DNA of 64,000 nt from an uncultured delta proteobacterium (GTDB lineage: Bacteria; Desulfobacterota; Binatia; Bin18): positions 128,001 to 192,000 of the forward strand of contig CAVTCR010000059.1 in assembly GCA_963733195.1 (NCBI GenBank), in the 5' to 3' direction. Positions within the stretch are counted from its first letter, which is position 1, and each line of letters begins with the position of its first letter. The position numbers and the translations under genes were made by a program. Shown here piece by piece: positions 16,294-62,151 of the stretch. The notes beneath the pieces were generated by a model. It saw only the letters and a program-made list of their open reading frames with translations, searched no databases and was not told the DNA's origin.

Positions 16294-16303
16294 AGTGAAA
16301 TGA

Positions 16304-16330
16304 AGGTCAGGCACAGCCCCTGCCCTTACA
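16304..16330 (-). repeat. Degenerate GTAG-type REP
   Basis: Reverse strand TGTAAGGGCAGGGGCTGTGCCTGACCT. Confidence 0.45.
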
Positions 16331-16374
16331 TACAGTGAACCTAAGGGAGACGATGCCGTACATGGCTCTATCCG

Positions 16375-16408
16375 CCCTTCGATTTCGCTGCGCTACGCTC
16401 AGGATGAC
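16375..16408. repeat. Palindromic repeat remnant (CCTTCG..CTCAGGATGAC type)
   Basis: cccttcgatttcgctgcgctacgctcaggatgac; resembles the ends of the 28818-28924 element. Confidence 0.5.
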
Positions 16409-16602
16409 GGTGTAGTGCCCGCCTCGTGCGACTAACCCATAAGTCGAATATGAATGTGTTTTCCCTATAATTGCTCTTAGCATATAGCATAGAGATTCCA
16501 CTCTGTGGTTACTCTCTGACGTATGGTAAAGAAGACAAATCTTACCCTGCTGAAGAGCAGACGGACAGCACCGTTTTACCGCCACAGGAGGGGAGGGCAA
16601 GG

Positions 16603-19600
16603 ATGACGGTCGAAGAACTCATCTCTGAAGTCATGGCAGTATTGCAGCGTGAAGGCCGTATTTCTTACCGGATCTTGAAGCGACGGTTCAATCTTGACGA
16701 CGAGTATCTGGAAGACCTCAAAGCCGAGCTGATCGACGCCAAACGGGTGGCTGCAGATGAAGACGGCAAGGTGTTGGTGTGGATAGGCAGTCTAGCGTCT
16801 AGTGTCCAGAGTCCAGAGTCAGAGCAAGTCCAAAGTTCAAAGTCTAAGGTCCAAGGTCAAAAAGACCAACCCCTAGCCCCTAACACCCAGCCCCCAATTT
16901 CTTACACACCGCCCCACCTTGCCGAGCGCATCCGTGCGGCCTCTCTAGTGGACGGCGAGCGCAAGACCATTACGGCGCTGTTTGCCGATCTCAAAGGATC
17001 TACGGCGCTGATTGAAGGGCTCGACCCAGAAGAAGCGCGAGCGATCATTGATCCTGCGCTCCAGCTCATGATGGATGCCGTGCATCGCTATGAAGGCTAC
17101 GTGGCGCAGGCGTTAGGCGATGGCATCTTTGCCTTGTTTGGCGCGCCGATTGCCCATGAAGATCACCCGCAACGTGCGCTCTATGCGGCCTTACGGATGC
17201 AAGAGGCCATGCGGCACTACAGTGATGAGGTCCGCCTCAAGCACGGTGTCCCGCTGGCGCTGCGAGTAGGCATCAATACCGGAGAAGTCATTGTCCGCTC
17301 GATTCATAAAGAGGATCTGCATACGGACTATGTCCCGATCGGGCATTCCACCAACCTGGCCGCCCGTATGGAGCAGATGGCCACGCCGGGTTCGATTCTG
17401 ATTACGGAGTACACCAAGAGGCTGACGGACGGGTACTTTGAGGTGAAAGCCCTCGGAGCAGCGGAGATCAAAGGCGTAGAAGCCCCATTGCCGATCTACG
17501 AAGTCCTTGGCGCGGGACCACTGCGTACCCGATTACAAGTCTCAGCCCGACGCGGCCTCACCCGCTTCGTGGGACGGCAGAGCGAGATGGAGCAAATGCA
17601 GCAGGCACTCGCGCAAGCTAAAGCCGGACACGGCCAGATCGTTGGCGTGATGGGCGAGCCGGGCTTAGGGAAGTCACGACTGTTTCACGAATTTGTAGGG
17701 GCGTATTGCAATACGCCCCTACTCTTACGATTAGAAGCCTACTCCGTCTCGCACGGCAAAGCCTCGCCTTATCTGCCAGTGATTGAGCTGCTCAAGGGGT
17801 ACTTTGACATCCAGGTGGGGGACGATGAACGCAAGCGGCGAGAGAAGATCATCGGCAAGGTCCTTACGCTCGACCGCAGTCTGGAAGATACCTTGCCCTA
17901 CCTCTTCGCCCTTCTGGGAATTGAAGAACAGCCCTCGCCGTTACAACAGATGGACCCACAGATTCGGCGCAAACGCACGTTCGAGATGCTCAAGAAGCTC
18001 TTGCTGCGCGAGAGTCTCAATCAACCATTGATCCTGATCTTTGAAGACTTGCACTGGATTGACAGCGAGACGCAGGGATTTCTCGACGTGCTGAGTGAGA
18101 GTGTAGCATCGGCCAAGGTCCTGCTGCTCGTGAACTATCGTCCCGAGTATCGGTCCGAGTGGGGGCAGAAGACGTATTACACGCAGCTACGGCTGGCGCC
18201 GTTCGGCAAAGCCGAGGCCGAAGAATTTCTTGATGCGCTGTTGGGCGTTTCTGTAGGGGCCGACCGGCGTGTCGGCCCACAGGGACCGGGCGCACACACA
18301 GGTGCGCCCCTACAAAACCTCAAACGACTCATTCTAGAGAAGACCGAAGGCACGCCCTTCTTTATGGAAGAGATCGTGCAGGAGTTGCGCGAGCAAGGAA
18401 TATTGAGCCGCGACGGCGTAGAGACACGACATGTCGCGTCTCTACCAGCAGCGTTACATCTGCCTCCAACCGTCCAAGGCGTATTAGCGGCGCGCATCGA
18501 CCGTCTTGCCAGCGACGAGAAAGCCCTGCTCCAACAGTTGGCTGTCATCGGTCGGGAGTTCCCTTTGAGCCTGCTCCGCCAAGTGATCACCCAACCCGAA
18601 GACGAACTGTATCGCCTGCTTTCTTCCCTCCAGCGCAAAGAATTTCTCTACGAACAGCCCGCGTTTCCGGAAGTGGAGTACCTCTTTAAGCATGCACTGA
18701 CGCAGGAAGTGGCCTATGGCACGGTGCTGCAGGAGCGGCGCAAAGCCCTGCACGAACAGACGGCGCAAGCCATTGAAAACCTCTACGGTGCCAACCTCGA
18801 TGAGCACTACAGCGCCCTGGCGCATCATTACAGTCGCAGTGGCAACGCCGCAAAGGCCGTGGAGTATCTCAGCCTGGCGGGACAGCAAGCGGCACGGCAG
18901 TCAGCAAACGCGGAAGCCATCACCCACCTCACCACAGCTCTTGAACTGCTCAAAATCCTGCCTGACACCACCGCCCGAGCCCGTCAAGAACTCACCCTCC
19001 AACTGAGTCTCGGCGCTTCGTTGATGGCCACGAAAGGGTATAGTGCCGCCGAACTGGAACTGACCTACACCCGAGCGCAGGAGTTGTGTCTACAGGTAGG
19101 AGAGCCGCTCCAGGTCGCGCAAGTCCTGTATGGGCGGTGTGCATTTAACGCAGTGCGAGGGAATCACACCGCGGCGCTCGCCTTGGGGGAACAGTTCCTC
19201 ACCGTTGCCCAACGACAGCAGGATTCCACTCTGTCCCTCGTGGCCCATGCAACGGTGGGGGCAACCTTGCTCTGGCGCGGAGAGTTCACTCCCGCGCAAG
19301 CGCATCTTGAGCAAGCCTTTGCTTTCTACGACCCCGAGCATCACCGCGACTTGGCCTACCAGACGGGACAGGACCCGGGGTTAACGGCTCTGGTCCGTGC
19401 AGCGGAGACCCTCTGGTATCGTGGCTACCCAGACCAGGCCCTAGAGCGCGTCCGTCACGGGCTCTCCTTAGCCCAAGCCCTGGCGCATCCCTTGAGCTTG
19501 GCGGACCACGCTGGGTGCATGTCGCCCGCGTGCATCTGTTCCGCCGCGAGGGCCAGGAGGCCCACGCCCAGGCGGAGGCGATACTGACCCTCGCTCACGA

Positions 19601-20278
19601 GCACGGGTTTGCACAGTGGTTGGGCTGGGGGACGAGCCTGCAGGGCTGGGCACTCGTCGAGCGTGCCGCGCGGTCCGGTGCACGGGAGCAAAGAGAAGCA
19701 GGACTCGGGCAGCTCCGGGAGGGACTGGCTGCTATGCGGGCCACGGAGGCAGAGGTATATGCTCCACTATTTCTGGGCGCGCTGGCCCAGGGCTATGGGC
19801 AAGGCGGCCAGGCGCAAGAAGGACTGAGGGTGATCGCCGAGGCGCTGGCTATGGTGGAGAAGAATGAGGAACGCTGGAACGAAGCCGAACTCTACCGCCT
19901 CAAAGGGGAACTCACACTCAACAACAGTCAAAGTCCAAGGTCCAAAGTCTCAGTTACCAGCCCCCAGCCCGTGACCCCCGATCCCCAAGGGGAAGCCGAA
20001 GCGTGCTTCCTCAAAGCCATCGAGATTGCGCAAAAGCAGCAAGCCAAATCGCTCGAACTGCGCGCGACGATGAGCCTGGTCCGGCTGCGCCAACAGCAAA
20101 CGGCGCAAAAAGAATCACGTAACACGCAACACGAAACACGCACTAGGCTCGACGAAGCACACAGGAGTTATCCGAGATCTACCACTGGTTCACTGAAGGG
20201 TTTGATACGAAAGATTTGCAAGAGGCGAAAGCGCTGATTGCAGAATTGAGCGATTCTAAGGATAGGAGCATTGAGTGA
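16603..20278 (+). CDS. Class III adenylate/guanylate cyclase-STAND NTPase-TPR protein (frameshifted near 19505 and 20165)
   Basis: LFADLKGST, LGDGIFALFGAP, NLAARMEQ; P-loop GEPGLGKS; EDLHWID; FKHALTQEVAY; the conserved end YHWFTEGFDTKDLQEAKAL is in a shifted frame. Confidence 0.9.
17695..17722. repeat. Perfect 28-bp GTAG REP palindrome inside the cyclase CDS
   Basis: GTAGGGGCGTATTG|CAATACGCCCCTAC. Confidence 0.9.
18252..18314. repeat. Inverted REP doublet (REPIN-like) inside the cyclase CDS
   Basis: TGTAGGGGCCGACcggcgtGTCGGCCC, spacer, GGGCGCACacacagGTGCGCCCCTACA. Confidence 0.88.
18418..18445. repeat. GTAGAGAC-type REP palindrome inside the cyclase CDS
   Basis: GTAGAGACACGACA|TGTCGCGTCTCTAC, one mismatch; same family as 40651-40680. 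Confidence 0.88.
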
Positions 20279-20363
20279 TTGATTCATTGCATCATTGAAA
20301 AAGGGTATTGTCAGTGAGACTACGACACAGATACATCAATGAGGGAGAGAAAAGGAGCACGGT

Positions 20364-20609
20364 ATGAGTCTGGTTATTCCTGATGAAATTCTTTACTCGA
20401 CTCACATGTCTGAGACAGAGTTGCGCCAGGAGATTGCGGTTTTGCTCTTCCAAAAAGAGAAGCTGACGCTAGGCCAAGCCAGCCAACTGGCAGGATTGAG
20501 TCAATGGCAATTTCAGCAGCTCTTAGCGAGTCGCCGTATTCCTGTCCACTATGATGTAGCGGAGTTTGAGGAAGACCTGAAAACCCTGAAGGAGTTACGA
20601 CAATCGTGA
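20364..20609 (+). CDS. UPF0175 family antitoxin-like protein
   Basis: LRQEIAVLLFQKEKLTLGQASQLAGL..FQQLLASRRIPVHY. Confidence 0.85.
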   Translation: MSLVIPDEILYSTHMSETELRQEIAVLLFQKEKLTLGQASQLAGLSQWQFQQLLASRRIPVHYDVAEFEEDLKTLKELRQS

Positions 20610-24199: not shown

Positions 24200-24326
24200 A
24201 TCAGGGTGTCACCCAGAACTTCTCAGAAGGGAATCTAGCAGAACATCTCGTGTTCGTCAGGAATCCCTATGCAGAGTGGAGGAATGCTGGCAGCCTCTAC
24301 CCGCAGTGAGTTTCGTATGTTAGGAC

Positions 24327-26735
24327 ATGGCGGCTATGGAATCGCTCGCTACCGTCTTACGTCGAGTCCCGTTGTTTGCGGATCTCCCACCTGGTGGCCT
24401 TGCCAAGATTATTGCCGATCTCCGTGAAGAGCAGCATCCGCGTGGGACTGTCATCTGCTATGAAGGTGAGGAGGCACATGATTTTTACATCGTCAAGTCT
24501 GGAACTCTAGAGATTCTGGTCAACCGGAGTGGGAACCAACGCGAAGTCGTAGCGGTTGTTGGTTCCCATGAATGGTTCGGGGAACGCGCGCTGTTTTCGG
24601 ATGGTTCTCGCTCGGCGACAGTGATTGCACGCAACGATGTCGAACTGTGGCGGTTGACCAAAGAAAAGTTCGATAGTCTGGTCGAGGAGAACCCGTGGCT
24701 GATTCTACACTTTACTCAGATTCTCAGTGACCGCCTGTATAATCGCAACCAGGAGTTGTCGAAAGTACAGGCCGCGTTCAACTGGCAAGTGGATGCGCTC
24801 TTTCGTACCCAGTCGCCGACACAGCAAGAATTCCTGACCCAAACTGCCATTCTTTCAACGCTTGAGCCTACGATCGTTCGTGAGCTGACTGGTCATGCAG
24901 AGGCGGAAGCGCTGCTGATGAAGCTTGCCGAGAGCGGCAGCTTTGTTTCTGGCACGGGTGATGCGTTACACTATCCAGAAGCCATTCGCGACTTTCTCCT
25001 TGCACGGTTAATGGAGCGAGTGGGAAGTGAAGGAGTCCGTGCCTTACATCAGCGTGCGGCACAGTTCTACGAACGCACCGGGCAATGGGATCTGACAATA
25101 GATCATTATCTTGAGGCCTCAGCATTTCAGGCAGCGGAGACAGCGCTCGCATCACATGCCAACGAGAGTTTTGCCGCTGGTCGTTTCGACACGTTACGTA
25201 AATGGCTCGATCATTTTCCTCAAACGTTTCGCGACAATGGCCTTGCTCCGATAGAGCAACGACTTGAACAAGCGTTGTCTGCCGAAACACTTTCTTCTTC
25301 TCCAGCTACTCAACACGGGTTCCTTGCGCGGCATGTTCCTTCCTGGATCACCCAATGGATAGCCGGAGGAGTCGGGATCGCCTTGGCGTTGGGAATCGGG
25401 TTTTCTCCTCCACTTGGTGAACTCAACACTGCCGGGATGCACATGCTCGCCCTCCTTGCGTGGGCGGTGGTTTTTTGGGTATTCGATGTGCTTCCTGATT
25501 ATGTTGTTGGCATAGGACTCATTGTCGGTTGGATTCTGTTCGCGATTGTCCCGCCCGAAGTTGCGGTGTCTGGTTTTACCACTAGTCCGTTTTTCCTCAT
25601 CATTGGTGTCCTTGGGATGACGGCATCTTTGCAAAGCTCAGGGTTGCTCTTTCGTCTCGCGCTGTACATTCTTCGCAGTTTTCCCCTGACGTATCGTGGT
25701 CAGACGTTAGGATTAGGTCTGAGTGGGACGGGAATCACAACTTGTATTCCAGATACAACCTCAGGGACGGCGATTGCCGGTCCGATTATCTTGGCGTTAT
25801 CGGACTCGCTCGGTTACACCCGTCGCAGCAATGGTTCCGCCGGGTTAGCAATGGCCGCTCTGCTTGGGTTTGGTCAAATGAGTCCATTTTTTCTCACCGG
25901 AGCCGCTGAGAATCTGCTTGCATGGGGACTTCTTCCTGAAGCAGCTCGCGCACAGATTACGTGGGGAGGGTGGTTCCTTGCTGCGCTGCCGTTAGCGTTG
26001 GTAACGTTTACCCTGGCGTTTATTGCGATTCAGTTTTTCTTTCCGCCAGAGTTTCAGCCCACTGTCTCGCGTGGATTGATCGATACGCAAATTGAAGCGT
26101 TAGGCCCTCCGTCACGCGCGGAGATTATTAATGCCCTCGTTGTTTTTGGTGCGATGCTTGGATGGATTAGTGCCCCGTACCATAGTGTCGATGTTGCCTG
26201 GGTGGCGATGCTGGGACTTTTACTGTTATTAGCGACGAACTTGCTCGATCGTACGGCATTTCGTTCCGGCATTAACTGGGACTTTCTCTTTTACCTTGGT
26301 GCAGTACTGAGCCTGACCAGTGTTGTGCGACAACTTGGGATCGACACGTGGGTAATTCGGCTCCTAACCCCACTGTTGGAGCCGTTAGTAGCAAATTCTA
26401 CGCAATTTCTTCTGGTGATGACGGTAGCGATCTTTGCTGCACGCTTCGTGCTGCCAAGTTTTCCGCTGGTGTCGCTACTGACGATGACCATCGTACCAAT
26501 TGCTGCCACCGCGGGGATCAGTCCACTTCCTTTATTGTTAGTGATCTGTACGAGTGTGGCGGTATGGTTTCTACCGTATCAAAGCACGTGCTACCTCGCT
26601 TTGTATTTTGGCACGAAAGAGAAAGCTTTTTCTCATAGCCAAGTACGACTATTGGCATGGAGCTTTGGTGTGATTTATTGGCTGGCGATTGCTGCGGCGA
26701 TTCCCTACTGGAGATGGTTGAAGTTGGTGCCATGA
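24327..26735 (+). CDS. cNMP-binding/MalT-like/SLC13 (DASS) permease fusion
   Basis: N-terminal CAP domain (FGERAL..RSATV), MalT-like middle (ALHQRAAQFYE..HYLEA), multi-TM DASS-like C-terminus (ITWGGWF, LPYQS). Confidence 0.8.
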   Translation: MAAMESLATVLRRVPLFADLPPGGLAKIIADLREEQHPRGTVICYEGEEAHDFYIVKSGTLEILVNRSGNQREVVAVVGSHEWFGERALFSDGSRSATVIARNDVELWRLTKEKFDSLVEENPWLILHFTQILSDRLYNRNQELSKVQAAFNWQVDALFRTQSPTQQEFLTQTAILSTLEPTIVRELTGHAEAEALLMKLAESGSFVSGTGDALHYPEAIRDFLLARLMERVGSEGVRALHQRAAQFYERTGQWDLTIDHYLEASAFQAAETALASHANESFAAGRFDTLRKWLDHFPQTFRDNGLAPIEQRLEQALSAETLSSSPATQHGFLARHVPSWITQWIAGGVGIALALGIGFSPPLGELNTAGMHMLALLAWAVVFWVFDVLPDYVVGIGLIVGWILFAIVPPEVAVSGFTTSPFFLIIGVLGMTASLQSSGLLFRLALYILRSFPLTYRGQTLGLGLSGTGITTCIPDTTSGTAIAGPIILALSDSLGYTRRSNGSAGLAMAALLGFGQMSPFFLTGAAENLLAWGLLPEAARAQITWGGWFLAALPLALVTFTLAFIAIQFFFPPEFQPTVSRGLIDTQIEALGPPSRAEIINALVVFGAMLGWISAPYHSVDVAWVAMLGLLLLLATNLLDRTAFRSGINWDFLFYLGAVLSLTSVVRQLGIDTWVIRLLTPLLEPLVANSTQFLLVMTVAIFAARFVLPSFPLVSLLTMTIVPIAATAGISPLPLLLVICTSVAVWFLPYQSTCYLALYFGTKEKAFSHSQVRLLAWSFGVIYWLAIAAAIPYWRWLKLVP

Positions 26736-39167: not shown

Positions 39168-40307
39168 CTAGAGGTGCAAGTTTTTACGTGGTGTGTCTGT
39201 ATAGCAACGTTCAAGTTGATCGACCGCTTGATGAAAGCGTTCACTCACTTCCTGGGGAACCTGGATCATGACTTTGACGTAAAAGTCACCATTCGTGTTT
39301 GTTTTTGTATCTGTGACACCTTTGCCTTTGAGCCGCAATACCTGACCGCTTTGACTGCCCGCGGGAATCTTGAGTTTGACGTCACCATGAGGAGTCGGGA
39401 CGGTAATGGTTGCACCATTCACTGCTTCGCCAATAGTCACTGGTACATCAAGGTACAGATCAAACCCCTTACGGGTCAATGTCGGATGGGGTTGGATGCG
39501 GATCTCAAGATACAGGTCGCCAGACGGACCACCGCTATGCGCTGCACCTTTGCCTGCCAAACGAATACGGGTGCCTTCATCTACACCTGCCGGTATCTTC
39601 ACAGTCAATTTCTCTGGCGTCGTGATGCGACCGCTGCCACCACATTGGTTGCATCCTCCAGAGTTCAATCTACCGGAACCTCCACAGCGGGCGCAGGTAC
39701 GGAAAAAAGCCATGGGGCCAGTACCAACACGAACTTGCCCTTGTCCTCCGCATTCTATGCACGCGCTGCTCTGACGTCTTACGCGACCCCCAGTGCCATG
39801 ACAGGTAGGGCACGGGCTTGGGCGCTGGATAGAAATGGTCGTACTCGTGCCGCGTATTGCATCAAGGAGGCTGAGATCGAGAACATACTCGAGGTCTTGC
39901 GCTGGCGTAACCTCCGGCTGTGAACGGCCACCGCGCCCAAAGTTACCAAAAATGTCGCCAAAAAGATCTTCAAATCCAGGTCCCGTACTGGAAGTGGTGC
40001 GATTCCCTTGTTGCCGAGAGGTAGAGCCTCGGGCGCTGTTCCATTGCCGGTAGGCACGCATTTGTTCTGCGTTAAACCCTGGCTGGAGTCCCTCCTCGCC
40101 AAATTCATCATAGAGCTTGCGCTTTGGCTCATCACTGAGAACGTCATGAGCCAAAGACACCTCTTTAAAGCGCTCTTCAGCTTGTTTGTTTCCTTGATTC
40201 ACATCGGGATGATACTTCCGTGCGAGCTGCCGATAGGCTTTTTTAATCTCGTCGGTTGAAGCGGTGCGGTTAACACCCAGCACGGTGTACAGATCCTTTT
40301 TGGCCAC
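39168..40307 (-). CDS. dnaJ: DnaJ chaperone (class A)
   Basis: HPD J-domain, G/F region, four CxxCxGxG repeats, C-terminal domain. Confidence 0.88.
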
Positions 40308-40507
40308 TACTTAATCTCTTTCGAAGCTTCTGACCAGACTTTTCCGGCAGCGATTTCGCGGAGGGCCGTTACGACTTCTTTGTTATCGGAGCCGACGAGC
40401 GGACGTGCTCCTTTGAGCAATTCTTTTGCTCGTCGTGCGGCGATCACAATGAGCTGGAAACGGTTGGGGATTTTTTGCAGACAATCTTCAACGGTAATAC
40501 GTGCCAC
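40307..40507 (-). CDS. rpoZ: RNA polymerase omega subunit
   Basis: [33 protein letters not shown]; GGAGG RBS; stop shares one base with dnaJ start. Confidence 0.95.
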
Positions 40508-40650
40508 GCGAGTCCTCCTTGGGAAGCAAAAATTGTCCAGTATGCTTCCTTTACACAGGAACAACGTAACACTGAAAAGAGAGAAGTAAAGAAAGCTCTG
40601 AACGGAGAGTCTCTGCCCTGTCCCTGGCTGAACGATTCTGGGAGTTCAGG

Positions 40651-40680
40651 GTAGAGACGTAGCAGGGGCTACGTCTCTAC
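40651..40680. repeat. Intergenic GTAGAGAC-type REP palindrome
   Basis: GTAGAGACGTAGC-aggg-GCTACGTCTCTAC. Confidence 0.9.
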
Positions 40681-61192: not shown

Positions 61193-61321
61193 ACAGCCAA
61201 TCTGCGATCCATTCTCGGGGTGCGACTTACGACGAGTGTGACGAAATTTCTCCGCCTCCCAAACTGAGGACAGACGCTTCACACAGCAACCATAACCTCT
61301 TCATCTTTGCTAAGGAGCGCT

Positions 61322-62053
61322 ATGCGGTACACGATTGTTGATATTGAAACCCGGATTGAAAAGAACTTGGTCCAGGACGTTTATTTCTCGCACGAGAATC
61401 TATCGGCTGAAGAAGCGTACTCCCGGTTTCAACAACAGTTGCGGCAAGAGCAAGGGAACGACTTCTTCCCGCTCTCCTTTCATGTCCCGATCTCGATCGC
61501 TATCGGGCAAGTAAACGAGGAGCGTATCCTGACAGCCGTCGAAACTGTAGATGAAGAAGAGTACAGCGAAGAAAGAATTGTCCGAAGTTTTTGGTCGCGG
61601 CTTGAACGTTTCCCCGGAACGTTAGTAACATTTAATGGCCGTAACTTTGACCTCCCGGTATTAGAGCTTCAGGCGCTGAAGTATGGGTGTTCAGCCCCGC
61701 GTTACTTTGGTGGGAAACATCGTAATCGCTACGCAGAAGAGGGACATTATGATCTCTACGACTTCTTGACCAACCATGGCGTTCATCGCTTACGCGGTGG
61801 GTTTAACGTCGTGGCTAAGCTGATTGGGTTGCCAGGAAAGACCGAGATCGATGGCTCCATGGTCCAACAATTATGGCAAGAGAACCGATTAAATGATATT
61901 CACAGGTACTGCCGCCACGATGTGATCCAAACATACTTTCTGTTCTTACGTATCGAGTTGATGCGTGGGCGCCTCACACCCGGCCAGTATGAACGTACGG
62001 TACAACGGTCTATGAGCTTTTGGGAAGAGCTGGAGAAGAAGACGGACGCCTAA
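61322..62053 (+). CDS. 3'-5' exonuclease (PolB exonuclease-like, DEDDy)
   Basis: VDIET, TFNGRNFDLPVL, HYDL, YCRHDV. Confidence 0.88.
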   Translation: MRYTIVDIETRIEKNLVQDVYFSHENLSAEEAYSRFQQQLRQEQGNDFFPLSFHVPISIAIGQVNEERILTAVETVDEEEYSEERIVRSFWSRLERFPGTLVTFNGRNFDLPVLELQALKYGCSAPRYFGGKHRNRYAEEGHYDLYDFLTNHGVHRLRGGFNVVAKLIGLPGKTEIDGSMVQQLWQENRLNDIHRYCRHDVIQTYFLFLRIELMRGRLTPGQYERTVQRSMSFWEELEKKTDA

Positions 62054-62119: not shown

Positions 62120-62151
62120 AGTCGAAGCACGTCTTCAGACGTGCTTCGACT
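62120..62151. terminator. Perfect hairpin between convergent genes
   Basis: AGTCGAAGCACGTC-ttca-GACGTGCTTCGACT. Confidence 0.6.

Follow-up and report, generated by a model that had tools for sequence, protein, structure and literature searches.

GTAG-type palindromic repeats are read in frame in three loops of a cyclase-STAND-TPR protein family

A 64-kb window of contig CAVTCR010000059.1, from an uncultured delta proteobacterium, contains a gene whose product appears to combine a nucleotidyl cyclase domain, an NTPase domain of the kind found in signal transduction ATPases with numerous domains (STAND) and tetratricopeptide repeats (TPR); by the window we mean the whole stretch of DNA analysed. 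Three palindromic elements of the GTAG class of repetitive extragenic palindromic (REP) sequences lie inside the NTPase region of this gene and are translated as part of it. Relatives of the gene have different REPs, or no REP at all, in these three loops, and among the copies the symmetry of the DNA rather than the peptide is kept. On balance we believe that an expanded STAND family tolerates GTAG-type REPs, and REP doublets forming hairpins (REPINs), in frame in three permissive loops, where they are renewed or homogenised at the nucleic-acid level and filtered by selection on the protein.

All three elements are supported by sequence, folding and comparison with homologs. Site 1 (17695–17722) is a perfect 28-bp GTAG...CTAC palindrome, with 14 of 14 pairs, read as VGAYCNTPL. 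It sits right after the Walker A helix (GEPGLGKSRLFHEF|VGA...), in place of an ancestral K-x-x-S-Q-x-G-C segment. Site 2 (18253–18313) is a REPIN-like inverted doublet of two GTAG REPs, read as VGADRRVGPQGPGAHTGAPL. Its 8-bp outer arms (GTAGGGGC/GCCCCTAC) enclose two inverted hairpins at 18257–18278 and 18288–18309, each with an 8-bp stem and a 6-nt loop, separated by a 9-nt spacer. The doublet takes the place of an ancestral G-D-D-x-S-L-x-P loop ahead of the helix with the GxP motif (KTEGTPFF). Site 3 (18418–18445) is a 28-bp GTAGAGAC...GTCTCTAC palindrome with 13 of 14 pairs, read as VETRHVASL, and stands in place of an ancestral G-E-R-G-x-Y-R-L-E-x-x-P segment at the junction between the helical and the winged-helix domain. 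The three peptides all appear in the translation of a single frame, that of the open reading frame (ORF) 16471–19587. A preliminary description of this DNA had reported three in-frame palindromes within one cyclase gene; pairing, folding and translation agree with it, and the inverted doublet that it placed at 18252–18314 is real, with its ends corrected to 18253–18313.

Folded as single-stranded DNA, sites 1, 2 and 3 reached –13.5, –22.0 and –8.3 kcal/mol (z = –7.6, –3.95 and –2.3, respectively). None, none and three of 200 shuffled sequences folded as well as the respective site, site 3 being only moderately better than its shuffles. By our own arithmetic, ~2e-4 perfect 28-bp palindromes would be expected in 64 kb of random sequence. 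Scanning the window for GTAG...CTAC pairs with stems of at least 7 bp returned five places, namely the three sites, a palindrome at 40651–40680 and a match at 26424 whose 7-bp stem is chance-like. The 40651–40680 element is a 30-bp palindrome with a 13-bp stem (folding z = –13.2) between rpoZ (40307–40645, minus strand) and a plus-strand ORF starting after 40743. It shares the outer arms of site 3 (GTAGAGAC/GTCTCTAC), just as the preliminary description had said of an intergenic relative there, and is the sole further element of the GTAG class in the window outside the host gene. Rfam gave no match at E ≤ 1 within 16300–20400. The three window elements have the features of GTAG REPs, a 20–40 bp palindrome that forms a stem-loop with GTAG at its 5' end and CTAC on the other strand. 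The 18253–18313 element also has the two inverted REPs and short spacer of a REPIN; such doublets recur at the homologous loci L007, L010 and L015 and, extragenically, at L020 and L030.

To follow the three loops through the family, we aligned the best 120 database relatives, ~75–83% identical in the NTPase region, and cut the alignment at conserved anchors; a scan of GTDB species genomes yielded 78 loci (cited by L numbers). The closest cyclase relatives are labelled 'Deltaproteobacteria bacterium' or 'Candidatus Binatia bacterium' metagenome-assembled genomes (MAGs). The same names attach to the NCBI proteins to which ClpB of the window is 88–95% identical. As in-group we took every aligned row sharing at least 68% identity with residues 345–800 of the window protein (138 of 194 rows), and we assigned site states with our own regular expressions and length classes. 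At site 1, 38 in-group rows were REP-type, 99 ancestral and 1 unclear. Site 2 was longer than the ancestral loop in 126 rows and ancestral in 12, with none unclear, and site 3 was REP-type in 109, ancestral in 14 and unclear in 15. The loop peptides of the relatives take the forms V-G-A-x-x-x-A/T-P-L and V-E-T-x-x-x-A-S-L, along with VGAD...GAPL forms of 19–28 residues. The 9-residue REP peptide pattern occurred 131 times in the 194 rows and fell at three alignment positions, with 37, 35 and 54 hits; outside these there was one plausible copy, at position 464, and 4 others that misfit the palindrome.

Distant orthologs at 52–60% identity, among the matches listed, have conserved loops free of palindromes; they come from Cupriavidus, Burkholderia, Paraburkholderia, Trinickia, Ralstonia, Pseudomonas, Marinobacterium and others. 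Their ancestral loops read K-A/E-R-S-Q-x-G-C-L-V after the Walker A helix, G-D-D-x-S-L-x-P ahead of the GxP-motif helix and G-x-P-G-x-Y-R-I-E-x-x-P ahead of the winged-helix domain. Some in-group paralogs are also ancestral-looped, even beside REP-bearing paralogs of the same MAG; in one MAG, L003 and L074 have ancestral loops and L006 and L011 have REPs. The alignment that the preliminary description proposed thus found different REPs, or none, in the same loops of paralogs and orthologs. That the peptides are conserved ancestral sequence in homologs without palindromic DNA, which it had named as grounds for giving up its view, is contradicted by the comparison.

Other repeats use the second loop as well. 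In many family members site 2 hosts a different palindromic repeat class, CCCTCTCCC...GGGAGAGGG, read as SPLPxGERDRVRV (for example L011:11423–11530 and L018:11600–11710), and a third, longer class (RRGSPDPADSADRRS...ARSGDRPQ) is also found there. Judged from these sequences, site 2, taking unrelated palindromic repeat classes, looks like a permissive sink. The CCCTCTCCC...GGGAGAGGG class is also intergenic, including in Cupriavidus (L010:8291, L023:14829, L032:969, L044:18814 and 18915).

Six separate family loci came from one MAG and five from another, and tandem arrays of two or three family genes were frequent (L002, L005, L007, L012, L020, L024, L077); because of this we estimate that each genome holds about ten or more paralogs. 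The MAG records L003, L006, L011, L015, L021, L023, L025, L026 and L074 are titled Enterobacteriaceae, Klebsiella or Acidobacteriaceae. These titles of MAGs with the Binatia-type family are probably wrong, because gene content and GC content (0.55–0.62) do not look enterobacterial.

At the DNA level, the homologous loops contain perfect 28-bp palindromes with differing cores (for example, site 2 of L004, L007 and L008; site 3 of L007, L001 and L018; site 1 of L027). A perfect 28-bp palindrome can encode 95 of the 131 peptide occurrences (31 of 62 distinct 9-mers), and a further 27 occurrences can be encoded with one mismatch. When the four inner residues were permuted, 26.5 of 131 were compatible with a palindrome, and 7.7 of 131 when they were drawn from the family composition. 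We then aligned 20 copies of 28 nt (17 distinct) chosen by their outer tags, leaving out L015 11797 (half of a doublet), L054 14905, L061 14939 and L053 15923. Pairing held for 92.9% of the aligned cells, compared to 33–53% in slid registers. Changes on both sides were seen in 49 cells versus 15.1 ± 3.2 in shuffles, with 0 of 500 shuffles reaching the observed number, and 37 of the 49 double changes fell in the six inner pairs, which had not been used in choosing the rows. Fifteen of the 20 aligned 28-mers start with GTAG; the others start with GGAG (3), GTAA (1) and ATAG (1). Stem changes in the doublets are likewise compensated, yet they alter the peptide (window GGGCCGAC/GTCGGCCC versus L007 GGGTCGAC/GTCGACCC). 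In the listed segments the codon after the palindrome always begins with C, because the 28th base of the palindrome requires it. What the copies preserve is the symmetry of the DNA, the GTAG/CTAC tags and a single V-G-A reading frame free of stops.

The genes themselves are much diverged. Among 14 full-length family genes, compared by the Nei-Gojobori method (own script; 91 pairs, one undefined), synonymous divergence (dS) was saturated, with a pairwise median of ~2.0, and the ratio of nonsynonymous to synonymous divergence (dN/dS) was 0.13. The family genes are therefore old and under purifying selection. The REP at site 2 is identical at 27–28 of 28 positions in four MAGs, and third codon positions within 120 nt on either side are only 33–60% identical. 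Since the identity of the REP is far above that of the flanking third positions, the palindromes are either young or under a constraint on DNA or RNA.

We counted elements in the window and in the homolog loci with 10 kb on either side, a sample of 1,410,910 nt in which family genes account for 282,163 nt. Elements with exact tags (GTAGRGRC, 4–64 nt, GYCYCTAC) numbered 20, against ~0.3 expected by chance (own arithmetic); 16 lay within family genes and 4 outside. Three of these four were within 400 nt of the end of a family gene (L020, L030, L033), and the fourth is the window element at 40651. Near-exact extragenic copies were present at L011 9790 and L015 20042, both beside a family gene, and at L007 1202. 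For half-site 8-mers, counted in the in-group loci and the window, there were 34 in 115.5 kb of family genes, where ~7 are expected, 10 in 274 kb of other called coding sequence and 5 in 36.5 kb of intergenic DNA. Within the sampled DNA these elements live chiefly in the family, something that the preliminary description had not foreseen, and the comparison of coding with intergenic copies that it suggested shows in-frame REPs to be much commoner there than in neighbouring genes. A general hairpin scan (at least 11 pairs, at most one mismatch) gave no excess in family genes, with 27 in 282 kb versus 95 in 1,129 kb; only the GTAG class is enriched. A tolerant tag scan, allowing two mismatches in the 16 tag bases, gave 209 hits versus 437 in one mononucleotide shuffle. 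Its hits are mostly noise, and the exact-tag hits alone were therefore used.

The junctions of the elements differ between sites. All site-1 elements share the 5' junction EF|VGA, and their 3' side takes at least three forms: ...PL-LV-LQAY, ...PL-RIHGCLV-LEAY and, in the window, ...PL-LLR-LEAY, which add 3, 18 and 6 nt, respectively, to the ancestral 30 nt. A single REP adds 18 nt at site 2, and the REP form of site 3 is about as long as the ancestral one (21 versus 20 residues). All copies are in the V-G-A frame. Of the other two frames, as derived by hand from the sequences, one has a TAG stop and the third is open, Cys-rich and never seen. Site state was associated with flanking residues only within ~25 residues. 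On the topology of a FastTree tree of 192 of the 194 rows and 638 columns, with the three loops excluded, sites 1, 2 and 3 needed at least 33, 14 and 15 state changes, respectively; because of the saturated dS and the signs of mosaicism we do not read these as counts of independent insertions. The commonest variants were YCNTPL and YGRTPL at site 1, QHAAPL and TGRSPL at site 2, and RRAVPL and VETRHVASL at site 3, and VGAQHAAPL, VGAHGRAPL and VGATGRSPL were each present at all three sites. In 4 of 54 pairs the same variant occupied two sites of one protein, compared to a shuffle mean of 0.9 (10 of 2000 shuffles reached 4). This pattern fits short-tract exchange between homologous sites of paralogs, with occasional exchange between sites.

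An AlphaFold2 model of residues 345–800, built from a 54-row alignment, had a mean predicted local distance difference test (pLDDT) score of 83.9. Foldseek matched the model with a probability of 1.00 to Apaf-1, CED-4, plant nucleotide-binding leucine-rich repeat receptors (NLRs), MalT and a STAND-TPR protein. The predicted fold is that of a STAND NTPase (the NLR-like nucleotide-binding oligomerisation domain, NOD), in which a P-loop NTPase domain is followed by a helical and then a winged-helix domain. Site 1 corresponds to model residues 65–73, at the end of helix 57–68 and in the turn before strand 75–80, with a pLDDT of ~85. Site 2 (model residues 251–270) coincides with a segment of pLDDT < 50 at 250–268, and site 3 (306–314) overlaps another at 305–310 within a 24-residue stretch lacking secondary structure. 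Sites 2 and 3 are thus predicted to be disordered. The homolog anchors and the model together agree with the earlier placement of the elements between conserved motifs and in loops, a mapping that the preliminary description had proposed.

The ancestral loops were palindrome-free, and REPs took their place in the Binatia-type lineage; on the reading that we favour, loop content has turned over many times since then. A nucleic-acid process would keep the elements young or symmetric. Its candidate motors are a HUH enzyme of the REP-associated tyrosine transposase (RAYT) type, with its gene elsewhere in the genome, that exchanges or re-copies REP copies; gene conversion over short tracts between paralogs; and correction templated by the hairpins. 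Selection on the protein would purge copies that are out of frame or outside the three tolerant loops. The encoded peptides would then be passengers, flexible loop filler rather than designed specificity determinants.

A number of observations weigh against this reading. The 28-mers are symmetric through their very centre, for which a hairpin with an unpaired loop gives no explanation. Flanking DNA holds only ~7 extragenic copies, 5 of them beside a family gene; half-site 8-mers outside family genes are at chance level (15 observed versus ~19 expected); and the high-copy, mostly extragenic population that marks classical REPs was not seen in the sampled DNA. No RAYT-type domain (Y1_Tnp, PF01797) was detected among the 59 window ORFs of at least 110 amino acids, in line with the preliminary description, nor among 123 of the 186 listed flanking ORFs (100–420 amino acids) at in-group loci, the search in window and flanks covering only ~0.4 Mb from several genomes and so amounting to weak evidence. 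The elements mostly replace the ancestral loop with a small net gain and are not clean insertions. Only one of the two stop-free frames is used, and independent insertions would be expected in both unless the Cys-rich frame is counter-selected. Lastly, repertoires that differ from site to site are better explained by descent, together with conversion between homologous sites, than by transposition drawing freely on a single pool.

We also considered that the elements may be functional hairpins acting in cis, as mRNA processing or stability sites, interdomain translational pauses or protein-binding DNA sites, inherited with the family and kept by selection without transposition. This is a doubtful but serious candidate. 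It would account for the concentration of elements in or beside family genes and their near absence elsewhere in the sampled DNA, for arms that co-vary, for a repertoire particular to each site, for REP sequence conserved amid saturated synonymous sites and for positions at sub-domain boundaries. Such hairpins are dispensable, however, because ~72% of in-group members have no site-1 element and some lack all three; the loops also take quite different repeats, there is no Rfam match in the region searched, and GTAG/CTAC tags with REPIN-like doublets are hallmarks of RAYT substrates. Adaptive diversification of the loops, with REPs as interchangeable cassettes and their shared ends as recombination anchors in an NLR-like sensor family, seems to us unlikely. 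It would be expected to alter oligomerisation, partner binding or escape from inhibitors, and it draws on the many variants at fixed positions of a multi-paralog STAND family with several tandem loci, on a frame that is always kept, on the overlap of repertoires between the three sites and on the predicted Apaf-1/NLR-type fold. The loops, however, lie in the NTPase/helical module rather than in the TPR sensor, disorder is predicted for two of the three, one loop is shared with unrelated repeat classes, the DNA is conserved even where the peptide changes, and ancestral-loop and REP paralogs coexist in one MAG. The preliminary description had proposed repeat-driven diversification of loops in an NLR-like signalling protein; the loop content does vary by REPs, but a functional diversification is unsupported.

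We regard as rather improbable the related idea that the palindromes are parts of a dedicated loop-rewriting system, in which a RAYT-like or other enzyme cuts at the GTAG/CTAC tags and swaps cores between copies. If it were true, three cassette sites would vary among paralogs and strains while fixed tags preserve the frame, a REP-based analogue of targeted hypervariation. That the peptides are conserved ancestral protein sequence and the palindromy of the DNA incidental is very improbable. The V-G-A...P-L ends do recur in many homologs, but distant orthologs are wholly without these peptides, the inner residues vary yet are nearly always compatible with a palindrome where permuted controls are not, and the DNA copies are perfect palindromes. 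An assembly or sequencing artefact is scarcely credible; read errors could account for the two single-base frame shifts of the window gene, one of which lies at a G run, but the same elements stand at the same sites in dozens of independent assemblies from different sources.

The host gene itself lies on the plus strand, with a coding sequence of 16603–19587 that begins at the ATG at 16603 within a stop-to-stop ORF of 1038 codons (16471–19587). Pfam places Guanylate_cyc at residues 165–335, AAA_16 at 365–552 and TPR_12 at 882–953 of 1038. The first of these (PF00211, E = 7.4e-22, 78.3 bits versus a cut-off of 21.9) marks the protein as a putative class III nucleotidyl cyclase; the AAA_16 match (PF13191) has E = 6.8e-19, with GEPGLGKS as Walker A motif, and the TPR match is weak. 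Entry P0003 of the protein collection is the same protein without the 44 N-terminal residues. The homologs run on in frame 3 from ~19524 and then in frame 2 from ~20168. The first frame change, from frame 1 to frame 3, falls within 19505–19524 at a G run and leaves an out-of-frame tail of 25 residues that ends at 19587; the second, from frame 3 to frame 2, falls within 20123–20168, just after a heptamer tract. Frame 2 then encodes the conserved C-terminus (..EIYHWFTEGFDTKDLQEAKAL..) as far as ~20257. By comparison with homologs, two single-base frame shifts thus break the TPR part of the gene. The three elements share one frame as the preliminary description had stated, but the gene copy that holds them is frame-shifted twice downstream. 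Either this copy is a decaying gene, a pseudogene in the making, or it contains two read errors; because of the two downstream frame shifts, we think that it is probably decaying. The genome locus closest to the window gene, L029:10001–12874 (76% identity), has 18 stops in one frame, is thus frame-shifted too and was left out of the protein rows; it retains the ancestral site-3 loop.

Heptamer tracts occur in three other places of the gene, where the preliminary description had noted them. About ten units of AGTCCAG/AAGTCCA lie at 16789–16862 (plus strand), in the linker ahead of the cyclase domain; three units of CAAAGTC at 19929–19949 (plus strand), in the TPR region; and 3.9 units of CACGCAA at 20116–20142 (plus strand), directly before the second frame change. 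In such tracts the frame is kept by changes of three units and shifted by other changes in unit number. Elsewhere in the window, 4.7 kb downstream of the cyclase gene, 24324–26735 encodes a cyclic nucleotide-binding domain fused to a transporter of the Na/sulfate-symporter type, a possible reader of a cyclic-nucleotide signal. A near-perfect 32-bp palindrome that is not of the GTAG class (62120–62151; 15-bp stem, 2-nt loop) follows closely on ORF 61268–62053, which encodes a PolB-type 3'-5' exonuclease domain, and looks like a terminator-type hairpin.

By definition REPs are extragenic, and how they spread is still poorly understood. The family offers a natural experiment on the copying and renewal of REPs, with fixed ends and a variable core, on the amount and the position of foreign sequence that STAND/NLR-type NTPases can take, and on whether selfish palindromes can give rise to protein variation. 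More than 30 symmetric variants stand at three fixed loops in one frame, and their DNA is conserved well above the surrounding codons. For annotation, recurrent V-G-A...P-L and SPLPxGERDRVRV stretches in proteins of soil and groundwater MAGs are to be taken as repeat-encoded and not as protein motifs. A literature search that largely missed subscription journals returned no paper with any of four repeat-encoded peptide strings, and nothing relevant on Binatia together with palindromic repeats. Turnover at three hot spots across one paralog family, with dozens of symmetric variants of mainly intragenic REPs, appears to be new.

In domain order (Guanylate_cyc, AAA_16, TPR), Walker A motif and predicted NOD-type fold, the host protein resembles the cyclase-ATPase-TPR STAND proteins, an order that we take to be the mycobacterial Rv0386-type architecture. 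Relatives in Burkholderiales and Pseudomonas are plain-looped, and palindromes are present only in the Binatia-type expansion. The comparison with Rickettsia palindromic elements (RPEs), the classic in-frame example, drawn in the preliminary description is apt. In both cases in-frame palindromic repeats lie in genes, which in Rickettsia stay functional and display the peptides on protein surfaces. RPEs, however, occur across many genes, unrelated to one another, in an obligate intracellular parasite, with no single family and no recurrent hot-spot loops, whereas the elements described here have a Binatia-type host and, in the sampled DNA, occupy the genes of one family only. They are RPE-like in their working and are not RPEs, and RPE-1 is much longer.

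A REPIN consists of two inverted REPs with a short spacer, and in the accessible text of the studies that describe these systems the 5' GTAG tag is a recognition feature and a single-copy HUH tyrosine transposase, RAYT, the supposed motor (Bertels and Rainey 2011, PMC3116915; Nunvar et al. 2010, PMC2817692). The window doublet is like a REPIN in its inverted REPs, short spacer and GTAG tag. Unlike in REPIN/RAYT systems, no RAYT was found in the sampled DNA, the copies are intragenic, and the single 28-mers are symmetric through the centre, with both strands reading alike.

The nearest precedent is the account by Di Nocera, De Gregorio and Rocco (2013, PMC3733652), the accessible part of which already describes GTAG and CGTC REPs inside coding regions. 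There they occur as singles and inverted dimers, some in frame, adding 7 to ~30 residues (20–30 in many dimers); their numbers are highest in Opitutus terrae and Rickettsia conorii, repair genes are frequent hosts, and the insertions are judged to be tolerated in modular proteins. The same text assigns RPE-4 and RPE-6 to the CGTC type. A term search of the accessible supplement found 'cyclase' in one row, for a diguanylate cyclase/phosphodiesterase that carries a CGTC REP, along with two O. terrae TPR proteins, and 'ATPase' in none. The genes in that account, as far as its accessible part goes, are unrelated (uvrA, uvrB, recBCD and others), mostly show one or two events each and are accompanied by a large extragenic population, whereas in our sample the neighbouring DNA is nearly free of elements. 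Here, by contrast, the elements occupy three fixed loops of one paralog family, in most of its members and in dozens of variants.

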